From Psammoneis japonica (taxonomy: Eukaryota), in contig QPGO01000027.1 in NCBI GenBank assembly GCA_008632985.1, forward strand, positions 496,001-560,000: a stretch of 64,000 bases of DNA, written 5' to 3'. Below are positions 26,205 through 57,836 of this stretch, piece after piece (positions within the stretch are counted from its first letter, which is position 1; each line of letters opens with the position of its first letter). Both the position numbers and the translations under genes were made by a program. Under the pieces are notes generated by a model, which was not told where the DNA came from, searched no databases, and saw only the letters and a list, made by a program, of their open reading frames with translations.

Positions 26205-27419
26205 CTACGAACTCTGTGATCCGAGTTCAACAACAAAGGGAATTCGTAGAGAAAGTTTGTTTGCTTCTGTCAGAGGCGCTTCTGGGAGAGACTCGTTTGG
26301 ATGTGTCTCAGCGTACCATCTCACCGTACGCTTGATCCCTTCCTCGAAACTCACGGACGATTTGTAGCCAAGCATCTCATGTGCCTTGGTTACATCCGCG
26401 CACGTATACGGCACATCACCCGGCTGATCCGGCAGTACCTTAATGTTTGCCTTCTTTCCAACGTATTTCTGAACAAGGCCGATAAATTCTTTGAGCGAGG
26501 TTCCAGATCCCTTTCCAAGATTAAAGATTTCATATTTGTGTCTCCGATCAATCGATCGCACAACGCCATCAACAATATCTGAGATGTAGGTGTAGTCACG
26601 TGACGACGACCCGTCACCAAATTGTTGCAATTCAAGTCCACGGCTAACTCTATCAATGAACTTGAAAGGCGCCATGTCAGGTCTGCCACGAGGTCCATAC
26701 ACAGTGAAGAATCGAAGACCGGTGACATTCAGCTTGTAGAGGTGATGGTAGGTATAAGCAAGAAGCTCGCATGCCTTTTTGCTGGCGGCGTACGGAGACA
26801 CTGGATGGTCGACATTCTCATCCTCGGAAAAGAACGTAGACTTGGATCCGCCGTAGACCGAGGAGGAGGATGCAAAGACAAAATTTTCAATGCCGTACTT
26901 GTGAGAGAGCTCCATCAGCCTCGTTGTCCCTTCGATATTTGAGTGGATGTATACATATGGATCAGCGATAGAGGGCCGGACACCAGCACGGGCTGCCATG
27001 TGGCAAACCCACTTGGGGCGCGTCGTCTCGAAAACGTCAGTAATAAAGGCTTCATCACAAATATCTCCACGGAAGATTGTGACTCTCTCTGGCCCGTACT
27101 TGTCAAGTAGGAGGGACAAGTTTGCTTCCTTGAGGTCGGTGTCGTAGTAATCGTTCATTTCATCAACAATTACGACATCGTCGCCTCGTTCCAAAAGGTG
27201 CTCAGCGACGTGGCTTCCGATAAAGCCTGCTCCTCCGGTCACAAGGACTTTCTTGTAGCCAACATGAGGCTTAACCTGCAACAAAGAATCATCGGTCTCC
27301 GCGTCCCATGACGACGTAGTGGAGATGGAAGAAGAGTCGGAATCAGTAGTAGCAGGTGTCGCGATGGACGTCAAACTGAGTTCGCTCATGGGCTTGGTGA
27401 TGCTTGGTGAGTTGAACAT
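26205..27419 (-). CDS. GAE: UDP-glucuronate 4-epimerase (extended SDR)
   Basis: VLVTGGAGFIGSH, HMAARAGVR, ASSSSVYG, YAASK, RFFTVYGPRGRPDMAP, RDYTY. Confidence 0.9.
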   Translation of the reverse strand: MFNSPSITKPMSELSLTSIATPATTDSDSSSISTTSSWDAETDDSLLQVKPHVGYKKVLVTGGAGFIGSHVAEHLLERGDDVVIVDEMNDYYDTDLKEANLSLLLDKYGPERVTIFRGDICDEAFITDVFETTRPKWVCHMAARAGVRPSIADPYVYIHSNIEGTTRLMELSHKYGIENFVFASSSSVYGGSKSTFFSEDENVDHPVSPYAASKKACELLAYTYHHLYKLNVTGLRFFTVYGPRGRPDMAPFKFIDRVSRGLELQQFGDGSSSRDYTYISDIVDGVVRSIDRRHKYEIFNLGKGSGTSLKEFIGLVQKYVGKKANIKVLPDQPGDVPYTCADVTKAHEMLGYKSSVSFEEGIKRTVRWYAETHPNESLPEAPLTEANKLSLRIPFVVELGSQSS

Positions 27420-27539
27420 CTTGTTGTTGTTGAAAGGTGTTGGCTCAGCAAAGAGAAAATTGAAATTGTGAACCAAGAGAGAGAGTGACAAGATGTTTCG
27501 CGTGATCTCAAGAGTCAGCATTTTTGGCAATTTTTTCAT

Positions 27540-29640
27540 GTTCGTGGCCGGTTAAAGGAAAAGAGAAAAAAAGAGGGGAATCAACCGTTGAACACACACA
27601 CACAATTGACCATGCAACCATGGCCAGAGTTGCACTGGCTTCTTTTGATCCAGGGTGGTTGCTGCAGGTGCAAAGAGTGGGGCACATTGCAGTTGCAGGA
27701 GGGTGACAATGTGGCACTGAGTGTGTGCCACCAGGCTGAGCAGCCCAGCTTGGGCATCAGCCAAGCCCTGCCAGGCCAGCTGCCCTGGCTCCAGCTGCTC
27801 TTCCCAGTGTGCGTGAGTTGTTGAAGGAGCACCACATTGACTCAAAGGCTGTGTTTTAAGTGGGGCAGAGAGAAAAAACTGTTGTCTTGGCTGGTGCTTG
27901 CTTCAGACCCTGCATCATGAGCGCAAGCTCCTCTTGAGAAATGAGCGAGAATGGCCATTTTTGGCGCCTCTCTTTGGTTGCCCACTTGGCATTGCCAACA
28001 AATCTTGAACCAAACTTCACTCACAGTTTCTTCACTCTTCAACCACAAAACCAGGTTCAACTTTTTGTTGGCTTCTTTGTGGCTGGGGTCACTGTTGCAG
28101 GCACAAATGGTGGGCACATGCCATGTGGCTGCTTGGCAACAAGAGTGTGATGCCAAGCATGTGCTGCACACCAAGGAGCCAAGCAGCCCAGCCCAGCTTT
28201 GAATGGAGCCCCAGGACAGCAGCCAACTCTGGGTGATCTCAGCATGGTGTGCTTGTTTGGGCTGTGCTGCACTCACCCCACAGTGCTCTGTGTTGTGGTG
28301 GCTTGTTGTGCAAGCCGTGTGGCTGAAGAGCCAGCAGCCAGCCAGGGCCCATCTTGCAAAGGCCACAAATGTTGACCCTGTGCAAAGCTGTGTGAGGGGG
28401 CAGGCACAGGGATTTGCAATGATGGCTTCACAGCCATTGGCCCCAAGTTGGCATTTGATTGGGATCCAGTGCTGAGGGGCTGTGAAGTGTGGGGTTGGGA
28501 GCCCAGCCAGCTCGCACTCTCTTTGTTGTCACAAAGTGCTGCCACAGCTGTCTTTGCATTGCAGCCAGCCAGGTGCGGTTGACCCCAAGTTGGCACTTGA
28601 TTTGGAGTGACTGCCAAGGAGCTGTGAAGTGTGGGGTTGGGCAGTCCAGCCAGCTCACACTCTTTGCTGACAGCAGAAAGCACTGTCGCAGCTGTCCTTG
28701 CGCACACATGGCCAGAGCAGCCTTGGCACATCCTGCTGACAAAACTGACAAAGACAGCGACTCTTGTGGTTGAGCCACTCAGCACGCAGGAGATCTGGGC
28801 ACACTCCTGGGAAGTCAAACAGGAAGGAGGGCTGAGCATTGCCGCCAGTGCCAGGCACAAATGTCAGCTTGTCTTGAGAGAGATTCGAGCCCACACAGCC
28901 CCGCGTTGGGCATCTTTGCTGGCAAAATGGAAAGCATTCTTGAGCACATTCTGGCATGTGGGCAGCACTGTCACCAAGAGGGCTGCTCTGCAGAGGAAGA
29001 GGGAAATGGGCAACAACATTTTGCAAGAACTGTTTTGTGTCAATGGTCGGGTGGGATGTGGCAGCATCATCTGGACTTTGATGGAGCATTTGGCGGACAA
29101 AGCTTGAGCACAGAGAGTTGTCCACGCAAGCTCCACAAGTGGCACTTTCCAAAGGTGACACCACACATGGGCCATGTGTTCATGCATCAACATGCCTCAA
29201 GCTGCAAGTCACACAAAAAAACCACCACCAACCTTTCAGCCAACCACCATCATGGACAGAACAGGTCAAGAGGTTCAAAACAAGAGCGATTCATTGACTC
29301 TCTTCTGGTTCCATGCATTCAAGAGCTTCTTGTCCTTCTCAAATGTTTGTTGTGCATTGTTGTCTCTTTTAATTCAAGTGCAAAGAGGAGTCACTTTTCT
29401 TGTTTCCATCTCTTGAGATGTTGTTGGTTGTTGAGTGATGCAACTTTTGTTGTCACATTTTTGGAAATGTTGGCAAACCCGATCACTGCTTGATTGTCAA
29501 CCCATTTGCTGTTTTAAGTCTCCATGGCATAAAATGCCATAATTCCAGAGCCCTCAATTGTTTCATCAAACGCAGTGCTTTGAAACACGTCCAACATCAA
29601 CTCGACTCAGTTGAAATCCCAGTTTGTGGGCGATGAAAAA
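27540..29640. other. TpA/CpG-depleted hypermutated island (decayed repeat or gene)
   Basis: Only a handful of TA dinucleotides in ~2 kb, few CG, strong TG/CA excess. Internal ~142-bp-period direct repeat (ccccaagttggca at 28441 and 28583). Confidence 0.85.
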
Positions 29641-36773: not shown

Positions 36774-37432
36774 TTACACGTCACCACGATGAAAAGGTCC
36801 CGAAGGAAAAATCTTGTTCCAATCTGTTGAAGGCCCATGGTATTCCGTATCCATTAACTCGACATTCCCAATCGAATCAATCAGTGCATCAATTTTCTGA
36901 TACTTGTTGTCGCGCAACAAGTCTTCAAGATCTGATTCTGCTATTACTTTTTTCCGAGCAACCGGGGCGGCTGGAGGATTAAATGGGTGTACAGCATCAC
37001 GTTCTTCTTGCGAAAGATCGTTCTCAAAGATACGGCGTTGAATTGGTAAAAGTTTGTAGTCATGGTAAAGAGTGAGCACGGCTGGAGAAGGATAGCTGAC
37101 AATTCTCAAACCCTGATATGCTGGATGGTCCCCCGCAAGGCATGTAAAGCAGCATTTCGCTACCAAACGGCGTGTGTTGTAACCTTGATTGATTAAATAA
37201 CAACCCAAATGCTCGGCTCCTTTCTCGACACGTAGTGCATTCGGAAAGTAACCAAGTCAGGGAGAGGCGCTGGCATTGGACCACCCTTTTCATGGCACCA
37301 CGCTAAAGCCTTACGGCAATCCTTGCAACAGCATTCTAATCGATACAACGGTGGGGCCGCAAGCGATATTGCCACCTTGCTGCAGTTACACTTGAGCGAA
37401 GCGAATGCTGACCGTTGTGTAGGAGCAGACAT
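36774..37432 (-). CDS. GFA/CENP-V-like Cys-zinc protein
   Basis: CNCSKV...CCCKDCRK...WCHEKGG...YFPNAL...RRLVAKCCFT; 1-bp deletion ~37250; paralog at 60377-61000. Confidence 0.65.
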
Positions 37433-37589
37433 GAGAGTAAGTACAAAGATCAATGGGACAACAAGGCAACTATGGTCAGGTATCGAATGCTTTTCTGTCG
37501 GCTTACCGCCATTTTTTCTTTTCCTCACTTCCGACTTCATGATTTCATTGTCGGGCGACCATGCTCTGGGAGTGGTAGAACCTCTCTAT

Positions 37590-37814
37590 CGAGTAAATCT
37601 AGCTGCCGAATAGGCTCAGCCACTCACAGTCTTAGTACGATAGCGCGAATACAACCAATAAGATGCTTCTAGGCCTGTTACAACTACGACAGATGCAACA
37701 AGTGAAAAAACCATTCCGTGGTCATCGGCATTTTAGTCCGCACACCAGTCATAGTTTCTCCACAGCACCTCCTAGAGCACACTAGACAGTCTCTGATACA
37801 TCGGATTTCACTCG
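37590..37814 (-). repeat. Copia 3' LTR (225 bp)
   Basis: Direct repeat of 44022-44245; preceded on the minus strand by PPT-like GAGGGGAC. Confidence 0.95.
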
Positions 37815-40800
37815 GTCCCCTCGAAATGTACCTGACTCGTAAGGCACAATTCGATCCAATGCTGCATCAGTAGTCCAACTCAAACAATCTTGACTTATCG
37901 ATCGACGTAAAAACCCTTGCTAGGGAAAAGTCGCCAATCCTCTGTGCATGGTGTAAACCCTCACTAGGGAAGAAACTCACCACCGCTCCACGTGTCCGTC
38001 TCAATGCGTGAACTTGTCTAACAGAAAAATTCCGTCTGATGGACGACATGACCTTTGTGAACAGATCGCAAAGGTTTGTCTCTGTTCCCTCCTTTGCAAT
38101 CCTAACAGTCCCCACAGCAACAGCTTCGCGGTTGCGGTGATGCGCAATGGAGTGATGCTTCTTCTTGAGTGTAGACTCAGGAATGGAGCAATTCTTGCAG
38201 ACGGCCTCATTGTCACAGAAGACATTTGTTGGCCCTTCGATCGGTGCCCCAAACATTCGAAGCTCACGTCGTAGACCCTCTATGAGCTCGATGGCATTCT
38301 TGAGTGCAATGATCTCAGCCCCAAATGTGCTAGCCTCCACGGCATTCTGACGCTTCGAGTGCCGCACGATGGGTGCCCAATCAACAAACATCAAGATGCC
38401 TGCATGGCTGCGACGATCGGCAACATTTCCGGCATGGTTGGCATCCACAAAACAATGTGTCGATGCCACATTACCTCGGGCTGGCGGTGCATTTGTCGGG
38501 ATGGCTTCTCTTGCATCTTGGTGGAAGTCACACCAGCCGCACTTCACGAATCGCGATTCATCGATCTTGGGATGAGCCGGATCAAATGCCACTTGGCGCT
38601 TTGGAACCTGTTTGAGGTGTGCAAAGATGTGCAACACCTGTTCCAGATGACCAATGCGAGGAAGAGCAAGGTGAGCAGACATTGACGAAACCTCCAAATG
38701 GACGTCCACTCCACCGAGTTCCACAGCCCAAACCAGTGCACCAATCAGCTCTTGATGGCAGTGAAGTCCTTCAGCATCCAGTTCGCCAGCAGTGTCTAGC
38801 TCGGGTTTGCATCCACTGCTCAATGGGGTTGTCGCCTTGCTGGGCAGACGTTTCCCCTCCTTGCCAAGCCTGTCCTCTACATTTTGGACAGCGGACTTGC
38901 AGCACTTCTCCGCAGACATTGCCCAACAGGTGGTCCCATCGGCTAAAGTCATCTTGGAAAGCGCATCACCGAGATGAGAATCCGGTTCGGCTACCTTGTC
39001 ACCCTTGAGCTTGAACTTGGACCTGATGCCGTCCATCGTCTTCATGGGTTCGTGACCAATTGACAGCACGTCGTCCACATAAACTGGAACGTGTTCGCAG
39101 CACTCGAATCCATCGGGTTTCACCGCAGGTTGCATCCACACATCCGGATCAGCCTTGCTCGGTTTGCACCCTAGATCATAAAGCGTCTCCGCTGGGAATG
39201 CCCCGAACGCTGCTCCGGAGCTCTTCAATCCGTGTGGAGCCCTGACCACAATCATGATGCAACCTTCATCCTCGCCAAACTCGGAACCTGCCCTGGTCCA
39301 AATCTTCTCCCTGCAAGGGGCAGCAAGGTGGGCGTTCTGGACATCACACGCAAAAGACTTGCAAGTCATTGAGCACAGCAAGCGTCAGTGCAATCCTTGC
39401 CAAATCCCGAGAGATGACAGAGGAGCAAGTGATGTGTGCGGGGGGTTTCAGCAGTGTGGCCTCCAGCCACCATGCGAGCTTTGCGGCGGAAGTTTTCTCC
39501 CAATTTGATGTCAAAAATCACACGGCACTTCACTTCCTGGAAACCAGGCGCCATGTCCTTAAGCTCCCCTTCACACTTGTCAAAAGCAACCCGCACATTC
39601 TTCATCTCCACACAAATGGCGTCCCACCATGGGGTGTTGCCATTTGCGCGATCGATCTGGATCGCCTCCTCGACACTCTTTGGGATCCGTGTGCCAAATT
39701 TGTGTGTTCGTAGCCAATGCTTCGACTTGACCTTCGCAATGGAACGCTTGCAGGTTTTCATGACATGAGGAACCCACCAAGCAAACGCTGCCTCATTCGA
39801 GATCTTGCGCTGAATGGCAAACTCGGCAACTTGGACTGGGAAGCTCTCCTTCACAATCTTCAAGTCGGTCCAAGTCGCACTTCCGTCCTTCCATTGGAAC
39901 AGGAGTTCCCATCCTTTGGTGGTCTTGCGCCTCTTCCGAACGCCTTGCTCGGTCTCAAAGAACTCGGATTCAGGAACGTCCCCATTGGTGCGGCAATCAA
40001 CGATCTCGTCAAATGAGACATGCCGGTTTCCGTCCTCGTCGATCTGAGCAAACACATTCATGGCAATGGAGTCAGCAGAGAGCGCAGCATGGTGCCCATC
40101 AGGGTGCTCTACCTCATGCATCCTTGCACCAAGGATGGGATTGTCATTGGCTGTTCCTGTCGGAATGCCATTGGCGTCTCTCAACCTCTTCGTGACACGA
40201 GCAAACTCAGGACCGTTGTCATCTCTTGGAAGCGCAACTTCCATGTTAAGGTGTCCCCAGTCCACCGCCTCCGGTGAGGCTTCCTCGTCTTTCTCATCGT
40301 CATCGTCATTTGTCACCTCCTCTGAGGACATGACACGATCACACTCATCAAGGAATTCATTGTCACATCCAAGGCAGTCTTTCCAGTCTTCGGGACTGAT
40401 CTTGCGATCCTCGTCATCGGGAAAGTCTTGCTCCTTCAACCGGCACTTGATCTCCTCGTCAAAACTGTCAAACTTTGCCTTTTTCTCTTGAGCAGCGGCT
40501 TCTAAATTGGTGACTCGTTGAACAGAAGTTCTCAAAATGACACTGCCTGTCTGTGTCAAAACGCAACACGACATGAGACTCCCTGTTCTGTGAGATGCAC
40601 CAAGCCACCTGCCGAGCTTCTCGTCCCCTGGACCGGCATTCTCCCTGCACCAGACCCAATCATAAAATCCAAAGTCAAGGTGCTCCAAGACATCCACGGT
40701 CTCTCCGAGAATGTTCTCCAGTGGTGCTCCAGCATCCAAATGATGGGCTCCAAGGAATGTGCGAGACATGGTCTCACATGTCCACATGAATCCGCAGTCC

Positions 40801-43800
40801 CATGGTCGCCGCGGCACTTGCTTCTTGACCATGATGCGGAGCCACTTGCGTCCAACCTCGCGCACAACCCCTTCTGCAGGATTCTGGTTGTGTCGATCGG
40901 GTTTGATGATGTGACAATCCATGCCCTCCTTGCGCACGGTCTTCATGAACTCCGTGCCAGGTTTCATTTGCTCCTTAGATCCATCCATCAGGAGTTTCTC
41001 TGGCACGCCAAATTCCTGGCAAAACATCTTGAGAGCCTCGCCAGCCTTGCTCTTCTTGTCCATGGGATAAATCGCAGCAAAGCATTGCTTGTTTGTAAAG
41101 ATCTGGGCATGTCGATTGCCCTCCAACGAAACCACCTTGCCATCGACCGTGTTGGTTGCCCATTCACCCCGTAACCTGGGCTTCGTGAACATCCGATCGG
41201 CCCGGTGGCGTCGACCCATTGGCATCAATGCTGACCTGATGAGCTTTTGTGCAGTCTTCTTGAGCATGTTTGCTGCTTGCTTGAGTCCTGTGCACCATCG
41301 TTCACTTGAGTCAGCAGCCAACACATCACTGTGTCTCTCCTTGGACATGAATGTCTTCGGGAGTGCTGAGTCTTTGGGTCATTCGCCGATTGTTTCCGTG
41401 GCAGAGATCTGGACTGTTGGCTCCGATTCCACATTGATGGCAGCTGTGAGCCTCGATTGGACTTGATCGACTCCACAAATGAATTGCTCATCGCAACAGT
41501 CCCCGGATTGAGGGTTGCTGAGGCAGGATCGGCTTTGAACTCGTGTGTCAGATTGGTGTGGATCGTCGCAATTGACCGAACTAGCTCCATTTCCTCCTCC
41601 GCAGATCGTCTAGTTCCAACAGATTTGAACTTGACGGTCTGTGGATCCCAAGGTTGTTGGGAGGTCATCTGGATCTTGGGGCATCAGTGCAACTCCTGTT
41701 CTGCAGGAGCATGAGTCACCGCAACGACATTGGTCCCCATGGCTTCAAGCGGCATCATGAAAGATCTGTCCTCTGTGAGGACACACAGTGGTGAATCGGA
41801 GCAGGGGTTGTCCTGAACCTTAGCACCAAAGTGCCGCAGCTGGTTTGGGTTAACCAGCGAGTGCTCCATGGACTCCGGCATCCACAAGCCCTCGTGGAAG
41901 ACCAGAATAAAAGTTGCTCCCGATGTCGGTGACGTCCACGCCGTGGCTGCCGAGACAATTGGGACACACTTGATGGAATCGCATCCCTCGTTAAAAGGCG
42001 ATGCGTCACATTCTCGTCCAGAACAACCTGAGAGGGTAAAGTTTTGACCAAAAACAGTGGTGTCAGCATGCGAATCCATTTCAAGGCATCCATGTTGTGC
42101 CTTTCTCATGTCACGGATGTGAGTGATTCGTGTGGTGTCAGACCGCATTGCCGAGACACGCCGTGTCGAGGCAACGACCTCACAGACGCGTTTGTTGCAG
42201 CCACGTGGATGCTGCTCCTTTGATCGATGCGGCTGTCCCCCGCCCCATTGTGGCAACCACAACAAGAAGTTTGTGATGCAACAAAGCAGGGTCCAGCTTG
42301 GCAGTCATTTGTTCTTTCCTCTGCACTTTTTGCTGCGACCACCGAATGCGTCTCCGGCATTGTCTCCGTCTTTGCCGCCAGCCCTTGATTCATCATTGCC
42401 AGAATCGGCGCTGGCATTAGTGTTCAGGGCGGAGATTTTGAGGTTCGCTTCTTTAAGCTGCGACGACAGCTTCCGATTCTTCTTCTTGAGCGACTTTACG
42501 GATGCAGCACGGCGTTTGGTTGGTTTGGGTTGTTTGGCAACACCTGGACGCACGCGCTCGTCGACAACCTTCTGTTTGTCCTCCTTGCTCAACTGGTGCC
42601 AATTTTTGTGGCATCCAGTGTCAATGGATCCATCCTCATCATAGATGGTTCCACCCTCTTTTCCTCCTCCAGAGGCGACTGCGGCAATCGCACGACGATG
42701 CACAATCGTCTCTGGAAGGGTGGCGACTTTGGCAGCAAGATGATTGGCCGCCGTGGTGAACGTGATGCCTCCTCCAAACTCATTCTGTGCCTTCAAGGTC
42801 TCAACCACTGCTTGCAGTGATTGGTGCTGCGTCTTCTCAAAAAGGATCCGCAATTTCTGGGCCTCCGTTTTCGGTTCGTCGTTCTCCTCAAAAATGTCAA
42901 ACATTTCTTGGAGCTTGTCAACAAACGATTCAAACGGCATGGCGCGCTCACTCTTGCAATGGAGGGTGTTCTCCATGTGCTCGGCTTCAGAGATGCGGCG
43001 GGAGGCACTTCCTTCTCCCTGGCAATGGTCACACAACGCCCTAAAGTCAACTCATCCATTCTGCTCATTCTTGTGGTCTTTCAACCATTGCTCACTGGGT
43101 GTGCCCGTGGTGAGGGACTCAATGAGCAAATGAACCGCACGAGTGTCAGCCTCGAAAGCTGGGCCTTGGAGGGGTGCACATGCAATGCACTTCTGGACAA
43201 AAGTGTTGTGGCCTTGGGGTCTGGGTGCATCGTTTTGACGCATGCAATGCACTGACGGCACGCCAGAGACTCCTGGCACAATGCCAAGCATGTTCGTCAA
43301 GCCGGTGCTCCACTTGACCCAATCCTTTTCGCTCTCTGACATCCCGGGTGACGCCTCTTTACTGAGAGAGTCAGCAGTGGTCTTGGTCAGGGAACGGATC
43401 TCGGCACGACTGAGTGCTGTCTGGAGAGCAGCACGGAAAGTTGCCTGGTCAAGCCCATCCAGAGCAGGGTTCTTGCTCACACGACCAAAGTCCTGCACCC
43501 AATGGATGAGAGCTTTGAGTCGACGACCACGGGCCAAACCAAAATGAATGCGCCCTTCAGCAACCGTCCTCCTGGCGTGTGATGACGCGAGAGAATCGAT
43601 GTCCTCTTCCTTGAGGTCTTCTAAATCGTCAAAAGATGCAAAGTCTGCCATGAGCGAGACTCGTTGAGCTGGATCAACAAATCCAATCCATTCAAGTGCT
43701 GTCTCGATGGGATCCGGAGGAGCAGCCGCCATGGTGGCACCCACACCAGCAGGAAAACAGAGTCATGTGAGAAATCATAAATTAAAAGGATGTCTCGGTC

Positions 43801-44007
43801 TGTGTTGACGACAACACATGGCCATCAGAAGCACGGAGACTGGCCATGTCTCCTCACTGCTTGTGCACTCACTGATGCCAGGCGACGACAATCATCGTGC
43901 ACCCTTCGATCGACCGGCGTTCATCGTCATGACCCTGCCACATTGGTGCGATCGTCTCTTCACAGTTGTCCAATGCTTTTCGTCAAACCAAACCTGAGTT
44001 GATGACT

Positions 44008-44018
44008 TGGCTCTGATG
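44008..44018 (-). other. Primer-binding site core, tRNA-iMet-like
   Basis: Minus strand CATCAGAGCCA, 3 nt inside the 5' LTR, versus canonical TGGTATCAGAGCCA. Confidence 0.65.
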
Positions 44019-44021
44019 GAG

Positions 44022-44245
44022 CGAGTAAATCTAGCTGCCGAGTGGGCTCAGCCACTCACAGTCTTAGCACGACAGCGCGAACACAACCAATGAGATGCTT
44101 CCAGGCCTGTTGCAACTACAACAGATGCAACAAGTGAAAAACCATTCCGTGGTCATTGGCATTTTAGTCTGCACACCAGTCACAGTTTCTCCACAGCACC
44201 TCCTAGAGCACACCAGACAGTCTCTGATGCATCAGATTTCACTCG
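44022..44245 (-). repeat. Copia 5' LTR (224 bp)
   Basis: Direct repeat of 37590-37814 with 15 transitions and one 1-bp indel. Confidence 0.95.
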
Positions 44246-44282
44246 CTGTCGCTCTCTGCTAGCTGGCCAGCTGCTCCACTAG

Positions 44283-44810
44283 CTAGAGAGCTGTCTGCGC
44301 TGCCTGCACTGCACTGCAGCATCTGCCTGGCTGGCAGCCCAAAACGTTTGCAGCACATTCTTCCTTCTCTCTTCTTGTGAAATGGCATGTTTGGAGAACC
44401 CCATTTGTGTCGAACGCCGTTGCACGAGTGAGCCAAACCTCAGTCAGAAAAGCACCAAAAGGCACAAGAAATCGCAACAAGGCAAACAGCACTTGACATC
44501 TCGCTGCTTCCATTGCCCGTGCCCCACCCAGGATCTGCCCCATCATCATCCCTGGAGTGGAAACCAAACCAATCACTGCCATGGAGTTCACCATGGGTGC
44601 CCCAGCCAGCAGCTCACACTGCTTCCCAAATTCTGCTCGCCCCAACAACAACAGCCACCGGCCCATGCCAAGCACAACAAAGAGCTCAACCTCGCTCGTC
44701 TTCTGCTCCAACAGACACCTGCAAGCATCACATTTGGCGACAGTGCAGTGGCATTGATGCAACAACCAAAGAAGCACTCCAGCAGCTGGGACAATGTGGC
44801 AGGAGCACCA
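44283..44810 (-). pseudogene. UPF0014/YbbM(FetB)/STAR2-type ABC permease remnant
   Basis: PMVNSMAVIGLVSTPGMMMGQILGG...AARCQ matches the family motif GLVSLPGMMTGQILGG...AARYQ; frameshifted. Confidence 0.8.
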
Positions 44811-44811
44811 G

Positions 44812-47800
44812 CAAAGCATGTGTTGTCAAGTGGATGAAATCACACTTGTTCACAATTGCACATTGTTGCTCACGTCAATCACGCGACAATCGTGGATGTG
44901 CGCAATGGTCAGATTGGTCACACAGAAAAGATCAGAAGTTTAAAATTGCAAACACAATTGGCAGATGATGTTGAAATACAAGATTTCAATTTCAGTGCAT
45001 CTGGACAATCTGTTGTCACGATTGGATCATCCGAAAGGCCTTTGCTCTCTGCAGGAGCAGCGCAGCAGCTTTGGGCCATTGAGAGCTCCTTAAGAGTGTC
45101 CCAAAATGGCAGCAAAGGATCTGTCTCACAATTTTCCACTTTTCATGATTTGTTCTGCTTTTGTTTGTGCTCATTCTTTGAGCATGGTGCATTGTGCACA
45201 CACACCAGAGAAGGTAAAAACACAAAAATGAAGCTTTTGCCTCATGCAACCAACGGCAAGTCCATTGTCAAGCAGGACAAGATCACACCTCAACCGCTGG
45301 AGTCAATTTCTGAGCCCAAGACTCTCAAATTGAGCCATTGCATGAAGATGGAGCAGTGTTTTTATCCCAGAAACAAGAAGAGCGGCGCATGCATGATCAA
45401 CATCGAGCACTGCAACAAGCAGGGAGCTCCAAAATGCATCGCATTTATGAAGACTGCACAAAACTTTTGATCAGACAGAACATCAAGGAGCAAGCTGATG
45501 AGTTCCACAAGATGCTTGTGTTGTTGCAGGGAGACACTTTTCAAGTTTTGGAGACAAGGCAATGAACATTGACAAAAAAGCCGAAAGAGCCTTCAAAAAG
45601 TGCCTGCATTGTCTCTCAAGCCATGCACTCCCAAAAAATGCACTTCAGAATCAGAAATGACATCTGCGTCATGATCTCAAAAAGCCAGACTTGACAAAGA
45701 TCTGAGAACTTGCAACCTGGGCTCAGGAGGTCAATGAAGATTTCAAGCTCTGTTCTCCCTTCAAGTCTGACCAGAATCTGGACAAAGATGAGCTCAAGGA
45801 CATTGTCCACAACCTTGCACCTTGCAAGTGGTGTCACCAGTCAACGCCACAAGGTTTTGAAATTCTGAATCATGTGTTTGATGAGTTGGTTGAGTTTTTG
45901 GAACATCTGGAGGTTGCAGGAGACACACTCAACAAATCCATTTCAAGGATGACAGCAAAGGCAAGCCTGGTTCCAAAACCAAAGGTGGCTCCAGAAATTG
46001 TTCCAAAAATGGTCATCTCTCTGGCACAAAATAGACTGAGTCCAATGAGCACCAGTGCAGTTGTTTTGCAAGAAAAACACTCACATCATGGATCAGTGCT
46101 GGGTCATCAAACATCTGGCAAAAGAATGCCAAGACAATGCTGAAAATGCAACTCAAAGCAACAGTGCACCAATGGCAATTGCATGTGGCAGTCTCGCAGC
46201 AACATTAAAATGCCACTCCAAAAGGAAATTGAATGCTGTGATCAAACAGGTGGTTGACAATTCTCTCAAGGCAAGTTCCAATGTAAAGAATTTGAAGCGC
46301 AAGAGCAAAGAGAATGTGACTCTGACACCCTCAGCAAGGAAAACTGTCAATTTGAGAAAATCATGCACAGCGACTCTGAAGAATGACTGGTGCCACTCGA
46401 GGAGTCTTGTGCACTGCTGGATGTTGGGAAGCCCAAAAAGGGCCAAAGCAATTCATGCCAGTCCAGCAGTCATTGTTTGTGTGAACACCTGCTCCTTGGA
46501 CAAAGCAAAAAACAAGCCTCTGTGCATTCTCCTCAACAGTGGAACATTGTCTGCCACAATTTTGTGCAATTTGTTCATGCAGAAACTGAGATCAAAACAA
46601 TCGTCTTCATGACTGACAGCGAGCACACTAAAATCCAGTTCACATCACCTGAATTGATTGAGTCAAAATGACACATGTTGACAACACCCCTCTTCTTCTT
46701 TGAGTTGTTGTGATGTGATCATGGGATGCAACTTGATGTCCAGTCATGGGATCAGACCAGACTTTGCAATCAAAGAAATCAAATGAGAGGACGCAACTGC
46801 ACCCATGAAGAGTGTTGATGCACTCTTCAATGCTGTTGTTTTCAAGTTGATTGCGGATCACATTGAGGCCTCTCATGCTGTGATTGGCCTCAATGACAGG
46901 GTCAGTTGGATCCTTGACTCAGATTGTCATTCTCCTGACCTTGATGATGTGACTGCAGCAGCAACTCATCCAACTCCAGAGGAGCAGAAACAGCCAAACT
47001 TTCTCCTGGAAAGATTTGAGAACCTTTTTGATGGTTCTCTGGGCAAATGGATTGGGAGAAACCTGTGGATCTCAAGTTGAAATTGGGCACAAATCCGTGT
47101 CTGGCAAAGCCATTTCCTGTGCCACAAGAATTGGATGCAACTGCTCAAAAGGAAGTTGAAAGACCATGCAAGTTGAAAGTCACAAGAAAAACATTCTGAG
47201 TGGGCAGCTCCAACCTTCACTCAGCCCAAGAAAAATGGTGGAGTTTGGTTTTTGTCCAACTTCTGTGAGCTTGACAAATGGTCAGAAGCTGGATGGAGGG
47301 TTTTGTGTGTGCAACCTCACTGGATTTGAATGTGGGACATTGCCACATTGAATTGACACCACATGCACATCGCTTGTGCACACTCATGATGCCACGGGGC
47401 AAATGCAAGCACTCACTGCAGACTCCCTGTGGGAATCTCTGGAGCTCCAGACATTTTTCAGGAGCATGTGAGCAAGCTTGTGGCAGGCTTGGAGTTTGTC
47501 AGAATTCATGCTGATGACATGCAATGCCTGACAAAAGGTGACTTCAAAGATCATCTCAGAAAGCCTGAGATGATGCTCGTGTGGCTCCAACAAGCCGGGT
47601 TAAAGGTCAGTTTTTGCCAAGCCAGAAGTGGGCTGTCTGGGCTTTCACATTGCGCAAAATGGTGTCAGACCAATGCCTGAGAAAGTGGAGACAATCCCAG
47701 CAACTGCAATGCCTGCAACTTGCCAGGAACTGCAATGCTGCATTGTGGTGTGATCAGCTGTTGTTGAGACATGTGGCCTTGAGGATCATCCAAGGTGAAG

Positions 47801-50800
47801 TGGCAACGGATCAAAAAGGAACAAAAAGCCTTCAAAAACATGAAGCAAATTGTGTCAAAAGACATGTCATTGTCACATCCGACCCTTTGAGACATGCGCT
47901 GATGTGAGTGATTCTCAATTGGGGGCAGTCATTGCACAGAACAACTGGCCTGTTGCTTTCTGCAGTCATCAAATGGAGTGCAGACATGCCACACTGCAAC
48001 TGAAAAAGACTTCTGTCCACAGTGGAAACACTCAAAAAATTCCAGAATGTGCTGTTTGGCCAACAGATTGACAAACACGGATCGCAAAAATCTCACTCAT
48101 GAGAACTTCACAACAGACAGAGTCATGCGTTGGTGACTGACAACAGAAGAATGCAGCCCCGAATTGGCTCATCTCAAGGGCAAGGCAAACATCATCGCAG
48201 ATGCAGTCAGCTGACTTGCTGTGAAGAAAATTGAGCCCATGGAAAAATCTCAGCAACGAAGATCCAGCTGCAAAGGTTGCACTCAAATCCTGTGACAATG
48301 TCTTTCTGTTGACACACAAAGCTCTTGATGCTGAACAAAAATGGGACAAAGACATTCTCTCCAAATTGTTGGATGCAATGTGTCATGCAAAGACTTTTCT
48401 TGGAGGTGAGTGAGACCAGTTGCTCACATGCAACAAGCACAAATTTGTTGCACCAAAGACATTGCAAAGAAAGTCGGCAATGCAATCAGCCGACTTGCTG
48501 TGAAACAAACTGGGACATTGCCGAAAATGACTGAGTTGGTCACCTCGCACATTTGTGCCACATTGAAGATTGCGAGCACAAACGGAACAGTGTGATGCAC
48601 ATGGAGCCATTTGAGAAACTTTTTCCAATGTTGCTTGCAATGTCCAAACAATGTCTTTCAGACATGTTGCTCATTTCCCACTCTTAAACCAAGAATGCTC
48701 AATCTCAAACTGCACAGTTTGAGATTTGCAAAAATGCCAAACCAGCCAGTTTAAGATTTGTCACAATCTCAAACTGTTTTGTCACAATCTGAAATCATCT
48801 CTAAATCTGAAGCAAGGCAATTGTGAGCTGACAAAGCATTTGAAAGGAAACACACATGTGAAATGCATTGAGAGAGCAGAGTCCATTGTTCGTCAACAAG
48901 ACAATTTGAAATTGTCCATTGGCAAAACATGATGTGCCTCTTTTTAAAGAGGGCAGTGGCTGTTTTTCAGTGACGACTTCTCACAAGTCATGACAAGTGT
49001 TTCAAAAACAATGAAAGCAAAAAGCACATCAGGGCAGTTTCTGACTTCATCAACAGGTTTGGCAAGACCCCAATGGAGTCTTGTCAGTGCCACAGGTGTT
49101 TTGTGCATTCAAAAACCCCAACACAGCACTGTCTTTCTCATTGCTGTTGATGGGGCAAACACACTCATGCAAGCAAGCCCAAGCACCCTGCTTTCAACAA
49201 GAATGCAAAATGTCCCTGTCACAAATTCAAGCAAGTGGTGTTGTCATGCAAACTCAGGATGTCAATTTTTACAAACAACCTTGCAAAACAAGCCAGGTTG
49301 TGCGCCATTGACAACTGACAAGAAGGGCTGCATTGTGGCCACTGCGTTGTTTCTGTTGGATTGTGGCTCACATGATTGTGAGTGCTGCAAAGACTCTGCA
49401 ACAGCACTTTCTGAAAAACTTTCACAGCCAAGGTCTGCGCATCAACAAAGCAGTTGTTTGCACATGACGACTCTTTCAATGGAAGGGATTGGGAACCAGC
49501 GCATGTTGCATGGGGCCAGCTCTTTATGCGGTCAAAGGGACCTGTCACAAATGGCAAAGATCCCATTGCCGTTTGTCATCTCGATGGCTTTGTCAATCTT
49601 GTTAAAGTGTGTTGTCAAAATCTTAAACTGTGTCATCGAAAATCGCACTGTGTTGTCTAAATCTTAAACTGTGTCATGAAAAATTGCAAAATCTTGAAGA
49701 AAACGTCAAAATCTTAAACTGTTTTGTCCAAATTTAAACTGTGCAGTTTAAGATTTGTCTGAATCTTAAACCACACAGTTTGAGATTCGCAAATCTTAAA
49801 CTGGAACTGTCCACTCTGAAACTGCGAGTTGTCTTGTAGAAGGGACAAACTGTGAATGGCCAAAGTGCTCTTTTGTGGCATTCGCACTTGACGACATTTT
49901 TGGCCAAAAGACTTTTTCATTTGACAATTTTTTTTAACATGGTCACATGACACATCATGAAATGACTGTTTCAGGTCATTTCCAGGATGTTCCAGAACCT
50001 GTGGAAAACCTCAGCAGCTCTGAAGAGTTGGCAGCAAAGGTGACCCCCAAATCCTGCAACAATGTCTTTCCATTGACATGCAAAGTTCTGACGCAACATG
50101 TTGTCCAAAGACTTTTTGTGGAGGTGAGCAAGATCAAATGCTCACGTGTCACAAGGAAAAAATTGCCACACCAAAGATGCTGCAAAAAATGGTGACAGAT
50201 TGGTGTCATGTGCACCTTCTGCATCCTGGCACAAATTGAGTTGAAGAGACAATCTCACAACACTTGTGGTGGTCACCTTGTGTGATGACATGCAAAAACA
50301 CATGTCAAAATGTGGCGCATGCCAGACATTCAAGAAGAAACAAAAGAAGGAAATGTGGACATTTGCCACCTGAGTGTGCAGAGTCAGTGCCACGGGAAGT
50401 GGAGACCTTGTTGAACCATGCAAGATGCATCGCAAGGGCAAAAAGAAACCCCAGTCCTGAAATGTTCAACAATGGCAGATCCAGCAACAGGATGGTTTGA
50501 AGTGGTGGAAACTCCAATGAGGGGTCAACAACCATTGCTGGATTGTCAAAAGGAGCATGGTCAAGCAGACATCCTTGGCCACATCATTGATTGCTTGTGA
50601 TTGTGGAAGTGAGTTCATCGGACATCAATTTAGAACAATGCAGCCCAAGATGATTGTGGCATCAAGTGCAGCCCCACAACTGCACAAAATCCTCAAGCAA
50701 ATGCCATGGTTGAGCACATGCATCAAGTGCTGGTTTGCATGACACACACACTTTTGATTTACAAAATGCACCCCTGGATGCTCAGAACCCATTTGAGGGA

Positions 50801-51533
50801 ATGCTGTCAGCAGTGCAGCCTTTGCAGTGCATTTGACATGTTCAACCGAAACATGATTTTCAGTGTGTCCAACACGTTGCTGACTGGAAGTTTGTCCAGA
50901 AATGCAAACAAAATGTTGCAAATAAAAATGACGCAAGAGAGAATGCATGGCACACTCTTTGCACATGCGGCGTGGGAGAAAAGATCCCACTCAAAAACAA
51001 TTCTCAAAAATTAGAACAGCCCTGTGCTGGGCCTTGCATCACAACAACTGCACACACCAATGGCGCAGTGCAGATCAAAAGTGGTGATGTTGTTGACACC
51101 ACCAACATCCTTTGAATGAATCCATTTGATGAATGACTCCAATGTGCAATTGGGGAGGTGAGTGCAGCATGCTTTGTCAAAGAGATGAAATTGCGCACAT
51201 TCACAATTGCACATTGTTGCACATGTCAATCATGTGACAATCATGGATGCATGCAATGGTCAGATTGATCACACAGAATTGATCAGAAGTCTAAAATTGC
51301 AATGCAATTGGTGAACAATGTTGACACATGAGATGTCAATGCAATTGCACCCGAACAATCTGTTGTCATGATTAGATCATCTGAAAGGCCATTGCTCTGC
51401 AGGAGCAGCACAACAGCTTTGGGCCATTGAGAGCTCCTTGGGAGAATCCCAAAACTGCAGCACAGAATCTGGTCTCACAATTTTTCACTTTTCATGATTT
51501 GTTCCACTTTTGTTTGCACTGGTCCTTTGAGCA
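44812..51533 (+). mobile_element. Heavily decayed, composite Ty3/Gypsy LTR retrotransposon
   Basis: Diverged LTRs ~44812-45184 and ~51163-51533; TGG after the 5' LTR; PPT tggggaggtgag at 51151. SEWAAPTF..PKKNG, GISGAPDIFQE, IHADD (YxDD), DVSDSQLGAVI, KGKANIIADAVS, integrase remnants. Confidence 0.85.
48680..49830. mobile_element. Insertion bounded by AATCTTAAACTG motif/palindrome clusters
   Basis: Motif clusters at ~48680-48810 and ~49617-49825 in both orientations; interrupts Gypsy pol. Confidence 0.55.
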
Positions 51534-54500
51534 CAGTGCAAGTGAGGTTGAGGCCAAACAATTTCACAGAGCACCAAAGTTGGCACACAAGTGCAGCTCT
51601 TGTCAAAAGTGCAGCCAACATGCCCAAGAGCCTGGCCTTGAAAAACTCACCCAAGGCTGTCAAGAGATGCTGATGGCTTGAGATTGATTGACTCTGGACA
51701 ATTTAAGATGGCAGGATTCTTTGTGCAGGTGCTGTTGATTTCTTTTGACTTGCTCCACATGGGGTTTGTTCTCACCCACACCATCATTGACAACTTGCCA
51801 CTCATTGCCAGGTCATCCATGCAGCAGATCAAAGAGAAAGGAAAGCAGTCCATGGCTTTGCACCATTGCTTGCTTTCAAGCTTGGCTCCATCAGTGCTCA
51901 ACTTTCTTGCAATGAAAAGCAAGACACTTGGAAGATTGGCAGTGGGTGAAGCAAAAGCAAAAGTTGAGTTCTCTGTGGCTTTGGAAGCAACATGCAACAT
52001 CAGACATGCCTCCATTGTGACTTGCCTTTTTCATTGACAGCATGCCAAAAACATGCCATTGAAAACAACAAGTGTGGTGCCTGATGTTCTGGCAGACATT
52101 GGCTTTGTTGGGTGACGAGCCATTGTGCCATGATGAGTCTGGTGTGATTTCTGCACAGAGGCCACAAACAAGCCAGGTCTGTGGCTGCAGGGGGGGGGGG
52201 GGGGCATTTCACACAGCAGCATGCATGCTTAGATGCCAATGTGGGCAATGGCAACGCAGGGTGTTGGAGCTTCACAGCTTGCTGACCAGTGCGCGTTTGG
52301 TCTTGCCATCACTGAACTCTCTGTGTGGCTTGCAAACACATCACCATTTTGCTGTCAACTGGGCGCAGAAGCTAAAAAGTGTGAGCACAAGACCTGCAAC
52401 TCAACCCAAGCTGCAAACACAAACTTGCCACATTGTCCACAATTGTCAGTGCATCTTTCCACTGCAACTTTGCCTCTCCTGCAAAAACCACCTCTGGCCC
52501 CAATGTTCCAACACACTTCTCATGAGCCATCAATTGATTGGCCTTGTGCAAATCAAGAAGCATGGAAGGATGACATTTGGAGTCCATGCCACCCAATGCC
52601 ACATCAACTGTTCTGCCAGTTTCCATGGTCCGCATCATCCAACTCCAACAAAAAATGAACATTGTCAGGGCAATTCATTCTCACATGCCTGACCCAACCA
52701 CATTTCCAGCATGCAATGCGCTCCTTCTCTTGCTCTGCATGAAACTTGTGAGGCAGGTTTCCTGCCATGCAGGTGCCCTCCAACACCTGTGGTGCCTCCT
52801 TGGCTGACTTGGGACAAATGTCAACCCCCGGTGTGAACTGCTGATGTGGGTCTTTGAAGACTTGCCAATGTTCCTTGGTGCCTTCCATTGGCATCACCAA
52901 CAGCAACTTGTTCCTTTCTTCATTCTGGGTGTGTCATCAGCATCCTTGCCAAACCCATCTTCCTTTCTTGGTGATTTCTTCTGGGTTGACCCTGCCATGG
53001 GACATTTGTGCTGCTTCAACCATGCTCACAAACCAACTGCAACAGGAGTCTTGAAGTGACAAATGAGCCCCAATTGCTTCCAAGCCTTGACCACCTGAAC
53101 ATGTGGGGGTTTGTCTTCTCATTTGCATCAAACAAGATCAACTTGAGAACATCCAGCAGTGCTGCCACATCCCACTCCTTTGCAACTCTTGAAAACTCAG
53201 TCACTTCTTCAAGTTTGTGACAAAAACCTTTGCTTTCTGCATCTTGCAGATTGCACTCTGTTTCGCACTTGTCCCAGATTGACTTCTCCTTCTCTCACAA
53301 AGCAACATTGCTGTTGACTGCTGTCACCGTGTCAACTGGTGCAGATTCTAAAAAGTGAGCACAAGACCTGAAACTCAATCCAAGGCTGCAAAGACACAAA
53401 CACACCACATTGTTCACAATCATCAATGCATCTTTCCACTGCAACTTTGTCTGTCTGTCCTGTGAAAACCACCTCCAACCCTGATGTTCCAACAGCGGGT
53501 GAAAGAGTGGAAGATGGACATGGATGGGTGGGGACAGACTGGATTGATTGGAGCAACAAGGTGAGTGCACCAGTTGAGATTTTTTTTGCAACACTTCAAC
53601 AGCTGCACACATCTGCAGCACCTGTGTGTGGGGTTGTTCTGCAAAGCTTTTAGACCACAAACTGCGGGGTGGGAAGAAGCTTCCCAAAGTGCAGGACAGC
53701 CCACCCAACAAGGAGCTGTCATGGACTTCAGCACCCACATGGCCACACCCTCTCTTCAACCATGTTGGTCTCATCTGAACATTCAACAATTGACTTCAAC
53801 GGCCCTCAATGACAGGTGGTTCACATGCCAACCAGTGCTTTCAAGTGTCCTCAAAAGGCAATCTGACAGCTTTGCATTCTTTCAAGATGGCTTGCTGCTT
53901 TCTGCCAGGGACCAGGAGACCCCAAGCTGCTTGACACTTTGTCTCTTAGCTGCAAGAAGCATTTGAGCAGCCCCCTTTCAAGGCCCACACACTGCTGTTT
54001 TCTGGCCCTGTGAGATGGTTGGCTGATGCCCAAAGAGCACTCCACACCACCCATCTTGGGCCGCCACACTTCTCCATTGCTTGGAGGATCTAAAATCTGC
54101 AACTTCAGAGCCTCCAGAGAAAGTGGCAGATGATGAACTCAGCAAGAGCAGCAGCAACTTGCCACTTGTTGCTTGCTGTGCAGCACGACTTGTCCTTCTT
54201 GCAACAACTTGTGCTTTGACAGCCAAGCACAAGGGGCAGAGCCTGGCCAGCTCTGAGCAGCTGCTGCAGCAATGAATGTCATTTCATCAGTCAATGCTTT
54301 TTCACCTGCATGAGCAAGAGTGCCACTTCATTCAATCTTTGTTGCCTGCTCTGACTGTCATGACATTGCACCAAGTTTGATTTTCCTTTCCTCCAAAATT
54401 TTGCAATCTGTGGCTCCACCCCCTCACTGCATTTTGATTTTCCTTTCCTCCAAAATTTTGCAATCTGTGGCTCCACCCCCTCACTGCATTTTCTGCATTA

Positions 54501-57500: not shown

Positions 57501-57560
57501 TCATCCAGCCACAAAACATTGCAAAATTTTGCTTGCAGGACTTTGATTTGCTCCTTCATG
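51534..57560. other. Mosaic of unidentifiable hypermutated repeats
   Basis: TA and CG nearly absent. ~150-bp diverged direct repeat at ~52352-52495 and ~53329-53477; GWS..EG..KFN.L-like remnant near 56310. Confidence 0.7.
54376..54492 (+). repeat. Perfect 57-bp tandem duplication
   Basis: tttgattttcctttcctccaaaattttgcaatctgtggctccaccccctcactgcat at 54376 and 54433. Confidence 0.95.
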
Positions 57561-57836
57561 TGATCTACTTCTACATGAGAAACTTCTTGGCTCTACAAAA
57601 CACGAATTCCCTCCATCTTTGGAGGTGCCCAGACCACTGGCCAGCTAGAGACTGGCAGACAAGTGATGAATGCGTCCAACGCTCCAAGTAAAAAATTGTG
57701 CGATCATCCCCTCCTCTTTTTTCTCTTTTATTTATATTCAAACACGAATACACTGCCTGAAAAATTGCACCACAACACGATCAGTGATGGATGCAGGATA
57801 CAGGTGGGGTATAAGACGATAAGACAACAGACAACC

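Follow-up and report, generated by a model that had tools for sequence, protein, structure and literature searches.

In a 64,000-nucleotide stretch of the genome of the diatom Psammoneis japonica (the window; contig QPGO01000027.1, positions 496,001 to 560,000), a block of about 20 kb is nearly devoid of the dinucleotide TpA, and the left edge of this block falls within a copia-type long terminal repeat (LTR) retrotransposon, one LTR of which lies outside the block and the other inside it. We estimate, at roughly three chances in four, that TpA has been edited in place on both DNA strands within a silent block, the edge of which is straddled by the LTR pair. The changes run from A:T to G:C at TpA, occur at RTAY in preference to YTAR (R, purine; Y, pyrimidine), use the two strands equally and have sharp limits, and the TpA-free state includes single-copy host-type DNA inside the block.

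In the proposed mechanism, a DNA-level mutator would convert TpA, in place and on either strand, to CpA or TpG inside a bounded stretch of diatom DNA. This block consists mostly of dead transposons and has also lost CpG, as methylated DNA does. The copia-type element would have landed across, or been engulfed by, the edge of this block, so that the 5′ LTR and the body, located inside, would have lost most of their TpA, whereas the 3′ LTR and the adjoining 150–200 bp would have kept the sequence present at insertion. With one LTR on either side of the edge, the pair would provide a before-and-after record of the process.

The element is oriented on the minus strand, where its gag, protease (PR), integrase (INT) and reverse transcriptase (RT) open reading frames (ORFs) are found, with a purine run beside 37815 and a stretch resembling a primer binding site (PBS) beside 44021. 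It follows that the LTR at 44022, which carries the changes, is the 5′ LTR, and that the unchanged copy at 37590 is the 3′ LTR. The parts of the element are as follows (O/E, observed/expected ratio).

37590 to 37814, minus strand: 3′ LTR with 16 TpA (O/E 1.02) and 11 CpG, unmutated and outside the hypermutated block.
37815 to 37970, minus strand: inner edge of the element, of normal TpA density (8 TpA, O/E 0.73); it contains the purine run adjoining the 3′ LTR and the final part of the pol frame, whose stop is at 37867–37869.
37867 to 39384, minus strand: RT/RNase H frame, the best relatives of which are 65% identical and carry PF07727; 10 of its 12 conserved Tyr are now H, C or R.
39366 to 41378, minus strand: integrase-containing frame, overlapping its neighbours out of frame at both ends.
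41684 to 42304, minus strand: protease-region frame, with an in-frame TGA between the protease region and gag.
42305 to 43762, minus strand: gag-like frames in two pieces, separated by a TGA in frame at 43052 and named from their position only, with few homologs aligned.
44009 to 44021, minus strand: PBS-like stretch adjoining the 5′ LTR, reading CTCCATCAGAGCC on the minus strand; a putative tRNA primer site.
44022 to 44245, minus strand: 5′ LTR with 6 TpA (O/E 0.44) and 7 CpG, inside the block and carrying all 14 TpA and CpG changes.
37586–37589 (left, CTAT) and 44246 to 44249 (right, CTGT): putative 4-bp target duplication, with three of the four bases matching.

The LTR pair was recovered by a repeat search and aligned with MAFFT, and the differences were listed by context with a script run over the alignment. 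The direct repeats, of 225 and 224 bp, differ at 16 places, comprising 15 substitutions, all of which are transitions, and one single-base indel in an A run. By context, the substitutions are six TA>CA, four TA>TG, two CG>TG, two CG>CA and one AA>AG. Thus, 10 of the 16 TpA and 4 of the 11 CpG differ between the LTRs, and the TA or CG form is always in the copy starting at 37590, the CpG loss being as asymmetric as the TpA loss (0/11 in the 3′ LTR vs 4/11 in the 5′ LTR). The outcomes at TpA were balanced (6 CA vs 4 TG), and a single substitution was found in the other 171 LTR bases. The probability that at least 10 of 15 substitutions would fall by chance on the 32 of 225 LTR bases (14%) within TpA is 5e-6, and that of at least 14 of 15 falling on TpA or CpG bases is 2e-8, while a two-sided sign test on the 14 of 14 changes found on one side gave P = 1.2e-4. 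An earlier reading of the letters of this DNA (the original prediction) had reported 15 transitions, 10/16 TpA, 4/11 CpG and one indel, all of which were reproduced exactly on realignment, as was its statement that every TpA and CpG loss lies in the LTR at 44022–44245. It had also described a target site duplication with the same TA vs TG mismatch; CTAT and CTGT are indeed present, but they constitute weak evidence, since a match at three of four bases arises by chance about once in 20.

The loss of TpA is not confined to the LTR. The tracts concerned, and the gene and element remnants identified in them by a Pfam scan of 122 stop-to-stop ORFs from both tracts, are as follows.

37971 to 57565: block nearly without TpA, about 20 kb, comprising the copia body and an older part (44250–57560).
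44286 to 44825, minus strand: remnant of a host-type UPF0014 (PF03649) membrane-protein gene (E 6e-15), adjoining the 5′ LTR, with 0 TpA in 540 bp and single-copy by depth.
47390 to 47677, plus strand: RVT_1-type reverse transcriptase remnant of a second element, in the older part of the block; the expected YxDD reads HADD.
27553 to 29515: second tract, about 2 kb, beginning at the start of a UDP-glucuronate 4-epimerase ORF (26205–27539, minus strand); no family match.

In the control DNA (41.6 kb), the TpA O/E was 0.57, the CpG O/E 1.00 and the CpA/TpG O/E 1.13/1.17, whereas the corresponding values were 0.11–0.12, 0.75 and 1.48/1.43 in the copia body, 0.05, 0.16 and 1.76/1.93 in the older part (12.8 kb counted), and 0.02, 0.16 and 1.99/1.72 in the second tract. 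In 500-bp windows over 44501–57001, the TpA O/E ranged from 0.00 to 0.26 and that of CpA/TpG from 1.56 to 2.18. The GC content was 0.53 in the copia body vs 0.48 in the control DNA, and the dinucleotide profile of the window contained no tract with TpA excess. The original prediction held that the process acts in silenced repeats, at least as fast as CpG decay. It is in fact the faster of the two, as more TpA than CpG has been lost in the LTR (10/16 vs 4/11) and in the body (TpA O/E 0.12 vs CpG 0.75). The loss is restricted to a very CpG-poor block made up of transposon remnants.

When the left edge of the block was followed base by base, TpA was normal up to 37965 and sparse from 38019 onwards. 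Starting from the 3′ LTR (TpA O/E 1.02), the ratio fell to 0.73 over the following 156 bp, to 0.23 over a further 530 bp and to 0.11 over the remaining body, and stood at 0.44 in the 5′ LTR. The edge is thus placed within the element, about 155–205 bp inside from the 3′ LTR. At the right edge, TpA is normal again from 57566, 100 bp before an ORF at 57666–59360. The asymmetry between the LTRs arises because the edge of the block falls inside the element, with the 3′ LTR outside and the 5′ LTR inside; it reflects where the edge falls and is no property of the LTRs themselves.

Since the polarity of the changes is not decided by the LTR pair alone, relatives of the element were used as an outgroup. 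In total, 270 homologs were stacked on the PR, INT and RT frames, and a column was kept if at least 80% of at least 20 homologs agreed. At these conserved columns, the element departs from its relatives at 49 of 323. The 42 single-base departures comprised 14 TA>CA, 13 TA>TG, 4 CpG>TpG/CpA, 5 other A>G or T>C, 4 transversions and 2 ambiguous changes; TA>CA or TA>TG thus accounts for 27 of the 42. Conserved Tyr (TAY) was kept at only 2 of 16 columns, the others reading H (8), C (4), R (1) and F (1). In contrast, none of the changes expected of repeat-induced point mutation (RIP), namely H>Y, C>Y, Q or W to stop, and M>I, was found at 29 conserved H, C, Q, W or M columns. As a control, H or C was counted at the same Tyr columns in 160 homologs: 141 had none, 16 had one and one had two, and two others, P0105 and P0037, had six and ten, respectively, with H or C in 34 of 2114 cells when pooled. 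These results support the direction assumed in the original prediction, TA to CA or TG. In addition, the numbers of TA>CA and TA>TG are nearly equal on the coding strand (14 vs 13), indicating that both DNA strands are hit.

P0037 and P0105 are database proteins from other assemblies, with H or C at 10 and 6 conserved Tyr columns, and are probably translated hypermutated copies. Among 79 loci of the element's relatives from metagenomes, the TpA O/E was 0.53–1.05 in 78, with a median of 0.69, indicating that the TpA-rich 3′ LTR represents the normal state.

The contents of the block indicate that the process follows the block and not the element, since the single-copy UPF0014 remnant and the other elements in it are equally free of TpA. 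The Pfam scan also yielded a weak RNase H-like match among the ORFs of the block, and no Pfam family in the second tract. For the UPF0014 remnant, neither the word-based homolog search nor the PDB provided an outgroup. The segment 48510–49992 is absent from other copies of the surrounding repeat and is therefore an insertion into an older element. Within it, 49500–49950 is AT-rich and contains about eight imperfect repeats of a short motif containing TCTTAAACTGTG. These repeats hold 12 of the few TpA remaining in the block, nearly all of them as TTAA. The region was considered as a protected TpA island and rejected, because it is a short repeat bearing TTAA, a resistant context, and has a TpA O/E of 0.28.

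An independent case was found among the 79 metagenome loci, of which four copia-type loci (L037, L033, L029 and L018) were compared further. Of 12 conserved Tyr, 11 have been replaced by H or C in L037, compared with 10 in the window element by the same test, whereas 71 of the 79 loci score 0. Its TpA-poor tract begins about 800 bp into the contig, and its relatives, 88–91% identical, are not hypermutated. Compared with the 88%-identical L033, L037 exhibited 105 TA>CA/TG changes vs 17 in the opposite direction, whereas changes at CpG (34 vs 39) and the other transitions were balanced; compared with L029, the corresponding numbers were 32 vs 1. The CpG count of L037 is untouched (270 vs 271 in L033), which indicates that TpA loss does not require CpG loss and that the two processes are separable. 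L033 and L018 exhibited mild signs only (5 and 4 of 13 Tyr, respectively), with no clear tract, and were not counted as cases.

How often TpA was changed varied with the flanking bases. In L037, 44 of 47 RTAY sites carried a change, compared with 51 of 64 sites in mixed contexts and 4 of 21 YTAR sites (Fisher P 1e-9). Among the 83 TpA that survive in the block of the window, TTAA (7.7-fold), CTAA/TTAG (3.6-fold) and CTAG (1.9-fold) are enriched, and ATAT and GTAC are absent. The same preference for RTAY over YTAR is thus observed in two unrelated data sets. A corresponding rule for each strand, in which the edited A would be the one with a following pyrimidine, is weakly supported by the changes in L037 (33 vs 18).

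The sequence of the element indicates that it is an LTR retrotransposon of the copia type (CoDi-like, diatom). It has the features of Ty1/copia elements, namely the LTR pair, the sides corresponding to the PBS and the polypurine tract, and the order gag-PR-INT-RT. The RT frame has 983 relatives; among the matches listed, PF07727 is present in nearly all, and those that are named come from the diatom Fragilaria. The integrase frame has 8560 relatives. Conversely, the Pfam scan of the element's own ORFs gave no family at E<=0.01 and noise alone at E<=10, so that neither the RT (37867–39384) nor the integrase (39366–41378) frame has a Pfam match, although the 65%-identical relatives of the former carry PF07727; hypermutation (Y>H/C, L>P and other changes) may have put the frames beyond the reach of the profile, unless they simply escaped the scan. 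The copy is dead, with three in-frame TGA stops, frame shifts and overlapping out-of-frame ORFs. The premature TGA stops probably arose by CGA>TGA changes from CpG deamination. The original prediction took the PBS to carry the same change as the LTR, relative to a canonical PBS sequence. The three bases before the PBS-like stretch are CTC, not TGG; no tRNA gene was found in the window, and the canonical 12-mer had 0 occurrences in the 79 relatives' loci. No second copy of the element is present in the window. In a public sequencing run (X1), the depth over the element was 1200–2500, compared with about 58 for single-copy DNA, indicating a family of about 20–40 copies.

Several other explanations of the LTR pair were weighed. 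Taken alone, the pair is most cheaply read with the opposite polarity, since all 15 substitutions can be written as C:G>T:A, a single chemistry: a RIP-like C>T change at CpA/TpG would have created the TpA of the 3′ LTR, and ordinary CpG decay would have acted in the 5′ LTR. This reading is the least probable of those considered, because 14 of 16 conserved Tyr codons are changed while the 29 H, C, Q, W or M columns carry 0 RIP-type changes. Furthermore, the TpA O/E of the 3′ LTR (1.02) and its flank (0.66) lies within the relatives' range of 0.53–1.05, whereas that of the body (0.11–0.12) lies far below it, and a tract with TpA excess is lacking in the window. In an artefact of sequencing or base calling, a possibility already raised in the original prediction, base modifications at TpA and CpG would have been read wrongly in silent DNA whose true sequence has TA and CG. 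Some support for this could be seen in the small indels between the window and X1 (8 gaps in 2.5 kb), which suggest a long-read assembly. For comparison, contigs of X1, which is one sample, were matched to 37001–57000 of the window; these word-based contigs reach 315 kb, with a depth of about 58. In the single-copy TpA-free stretches, single-copy contigs agree with the window at nearly every position: over 54463–57000 they have 12 other letters and 8 gaps, and over 44342–45021 they have 3 other letters and 1 gap. The same signature occurs in contigs from other metagenome projects (L037) and in proteins P0037 and P0105; its presence in other projects' contigs rules out a quirk of one platform. 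Misreads affecting opposite strands would also be expected to give a mixture of calls, with TA and CG among them, rather than to remove both cleanly, and ordinary decay is present in the element as well, in the form of the three in-frame TGA stops and frame shifts. We therefore regard an artefact as very improbable. Over all variant places, X1 and the window differed by 288 transitions vs 33 transversions. At single-copy places in the block (44738, 48258, 48293, 48476, 49430 and others), the 13 differences listed were all transitions, 5 of them at CpG, and may reflect decay still in progress or differences between alleles or strains. Adjacent CA<>TG double differences against other copies (4 pairs among the 40 differences listed) were considered as proof of an ancestral TA but were left unused, because an ancestral CG is equally possible.

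Two further explanations accept the direction of change but place it differently. Editing of the retrotransposon RNA or cDNA before integration (ADAR-like A-to-I or APOBEC-like), followed by insertion of the edited copy, would have a precedent in the deaminase editing of retroelements that is well known in animals, and the preference for a 5′ T resembles the 5′ U preference of ADAR, as given in the main text of a preprint on the alga Bigelowiella natans (bioRxiv 10.64898/2026.01.13.699255). However, LTRs copied from the same templates should share their edits, yet they differ at 14 such sites; the strands are equally affected (14 TA>CA vs 13 TA>TG); the TpA-free state continues unbroken into the flanks, including the single-copy host-type remnant and other elements; and the edge falls inside the element. 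Such editing is accordingly hard to credit. The strongest competitor, which is nevertheless unlikely, is that the whole element was hypermutated and that an intact family copy afterwards replaced, by gene conversion or recombination, the 3′ LTR and the adjoining 150–200 bp, in which case the mutator would still be real. This possibility is favored by the many copies of the family (depth 1200–2500 vs about 58), by the position of the change in TpA density, which falls at about 37970–38020 within the element and not at its end, and by the separation of the LTRs by one substitution and one indel beyond the TpA and CpG sites. It is disfavored by the edge at 57566 and the second tract (27553), which also stop beside genes with no LTR involved, and by the fall of the TpA O/E in stages (0.73, 0.23 and 0.11), which is more edge-like than a conversion junction. 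Moreover, three of the four bases of the target duplication still agree, the one difference being TA vs TG.

Compared with these alternatives, in-place editing of TpA within a block whose edge is straddled by the LTR pair remains the best explanation, and the following points weigh against it. The polarity at the 15 LTR sites is carried over from the body and the block. The specificity is not absolute, since A>G or T>C changes that do not fall on TpA make up 5 of the 42 single-base changes. The edge lies within the element, and an intact copy that had converted the 3′ end would leave the same picture. The link to CpG decay may be mere co-location, given that the CpG of L037 are untouched and that no CpG loss is described for B. 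natans in the main text of the preprint. X1 is one sample whose library type is off record and which may be the assembly's own data, so that its support against an artefact is partial. Finally, the evidence is comparative and drawn from sequence.

The surroundings of the two tracts were also inspected. The epimerase ORF beside the second tract has named matches that are all from diatoms, at 72–83% identity. Its first ~200 bp (27350–27553), which correspond to the non-conserved N-terminal end, are without TpA, so that the tract may extend slightly into an apparently intact gene and cover its promoter side. The ORF at 57666–59360 (plus strand), located 100 bp past the right edge of the block, encodes 564 amino acids, is cysteine-rich and repetitive, and has no Pfam match. 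A look-up of four host ORFs by exact sequence returned no match. To the left of the block, the host genes include an ORF with MutS domain III (16366–17982, minus strand) and, at 18777–25801 (plus strand), a BAH-domain ORF of 1995 amino acids followed by an ORC/Cdc6-type AAA ORF; the latter two are possibly one ORC1-like gene split by an intron.

The original prediction knew of no described pathway of this kind, which no longer holds, because TpA hypermutation has been reported in B. natans (Mettrop et al., bioRxiv 10.64898/2026.01.13.699255). According to the main text of this preprint, 231 of 302 new point mutations in mutation-accumulation lines fell in two integrated viral regions; 230 of the 231 were A>G or T>C, and all 230 were at TpA. 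The TpA>TpG/CpA rate in this silent viral DNA was about 6e-7 per site per generation, about 1000-fold above background, and reverse-transcriptase and DDE domains were overrepresented in TpA-poor, CpA+TpG-rich clusters and coding sequences. As the enzyme, the authors propose an ADAT2-like adenine deaminase, and they cite DNA editing by BjADAT2 of amphioxus (bioRxiv 10.64898/2026.01.13.699255). In full-text literature searches, this preprint was the one relevant work, and no report of TpA hypermutation in a diatom was found; in a second preprint (10.64898/2026.07.24.739820), none of the terms looked for occurred.

As far as the preprint describes it, the B. natans process resembles that in the window in several respects. 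In both, A:T>G:C changes occur nearly all at TpA and yield TpG or CpA by strand (here 13 TA>TG vs 14 TA>CA), the changes are confined to blocks of foreign and, here presumably, silent DNA, and the footprint consists of TpA-depleted, CpA+TpG-enriched clusters. The B. natans definition of this footprint applies to 44501–57001, and the copia body falls within its TpA cut-off, with a lower CpA/TpG, however, of 1.34–1.57. The targets are of foreign or mobile origin in both, represented here by the copia-type element and the RVT_1 remnant, with the addition of the host-type UPF0014 remnant. The two cases differ in host (a diatom, which is a stramenopile, vs a chlorarachniophyte, which is a rhizarian), in target (LTR retrotransposons and a neighbouring host-type gene remnant vs giant-virus and virophage inserts) and in depth of depletion (TpA O/E of 0.02–0.12 vs 0.45 for the nucleocytoplasmic large DNA virus region of B. 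natans). Virtually no G:C>A:T change is described in B. natans, whereas CpG>TpG/CpA makes up 4 of 15 LTR substitutions here and the CpG O/E of the older part is 0.16; L037, with 270 vs 271 CpG, agrees with B. natans in this respect. We therefore read the CpG loss in the window as a second, separate process. The B. natans evidence is direct, from mutation-accumulation lines, whereas that from the window is comparative. The main text of the preprint makes no mention of diatoms, CpG or flanking context; the preference for RTAY over YTAR comes from the window and L037.

RIP of ascomycete fungi, which depends on repeats and on a sexual phase, is likewise a dinucleotide-specific transition mutator; it turns CpA into TpA and renders the DNA AT-rich. 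Like the process in the window, it ruins transposons in place, on both strands and in sharply bounded blocks, and it can spread to adjoining single-copy DNA. The chemistry here is the opposite, since TpA is destroyed and GC rises (0.53 vs 0.48). With respect to the duplication that triggers RIP, the element is many-copy, yet single-copy stretches of the block are equally TpA-free, although these could be old, diverged repeats. Of the 15 LTR substitutions, 4 are explained by deamination of 5-methylcytosine at CpG, as is the CpG O/E of 0.16 in the older part, but this reaction cannot give T>C or A>G. Bacterial TadA reads UAC, and the natural target of the TadA/ADAT enzymes, A34, follows the invariant U33. 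By analogy, this U33-A34/UAC target fits a T before and a pyrimidine after the edited A, making TadA/ADAT2-ADAT3 a candidate for the enzyme type. APOBEC3 and ADAR also introduce context-dependent deaminase mutations into retroelements, and ADAR prefers a 5′ U, as the preprint states (bioRxiv 10.64898/2026.01.13.699255), but they act on RNA or single-stranded cDNA before integration, on one strand and leaving the LTRs alike, whereas both strands are changed here, the LTRs differ and the flanks are included.

By this analogy, the chemistry may be deamination of the adenine after T by a TadA/ADAT-like enzyme. Targeting would follow silent, methylated chromatin, and the process may serve as genome defence. 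More tentatively, and with rather less than even confidence, we suggest that diatoms share with Bigelowiella a TpA-directed DNA editing defence, which would be an old counterpart of RIP, with opposite chemistry, across the stramenopiles, alveolates and Rhizaria (SAR). In such a system, a TadA/ADAT-like deaminase preferring T-A-Y (RTAY) would be recruited to silent methylated chromatin and would erase transposons faster than CpG decay, stopping within about 200 bp of active-gene borders and sometimes taking a neighbouring host gene.

In genomes of this kind, LTR-divergence dating and transposon annotation mislead, since the LTRs of this element are 7% apart with only 1 of 15 substitutions outside TpA and CpG. 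Annotation pipelines would probably miss such copies, whose ORFs have no Pfam match.

Overall, the window represents a new host lineage and added detail for a known process, not a new kind of process. What it adds is a diatom host, a sharp edge beside genes, a host-type neighbour gene that has been damaged, and a sequence rule that can be tested. The preference for RTAY over YTAR provides a concrete biochemical test for candidate deaminases, and the prediction can be checked on the B. natans mutation list. Diatoms include species with established genetics, in which the enzyme could therefore be sought by knockout. TpA-specific hypermutation has so far been described in one 2026 preprint on one unrelated alga. 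That a diatom bears the same signature, and an unrelated environmental element follows the same rule for flanking bases, suggests that the process is a widespread genome defence and not peculiar to a single species.

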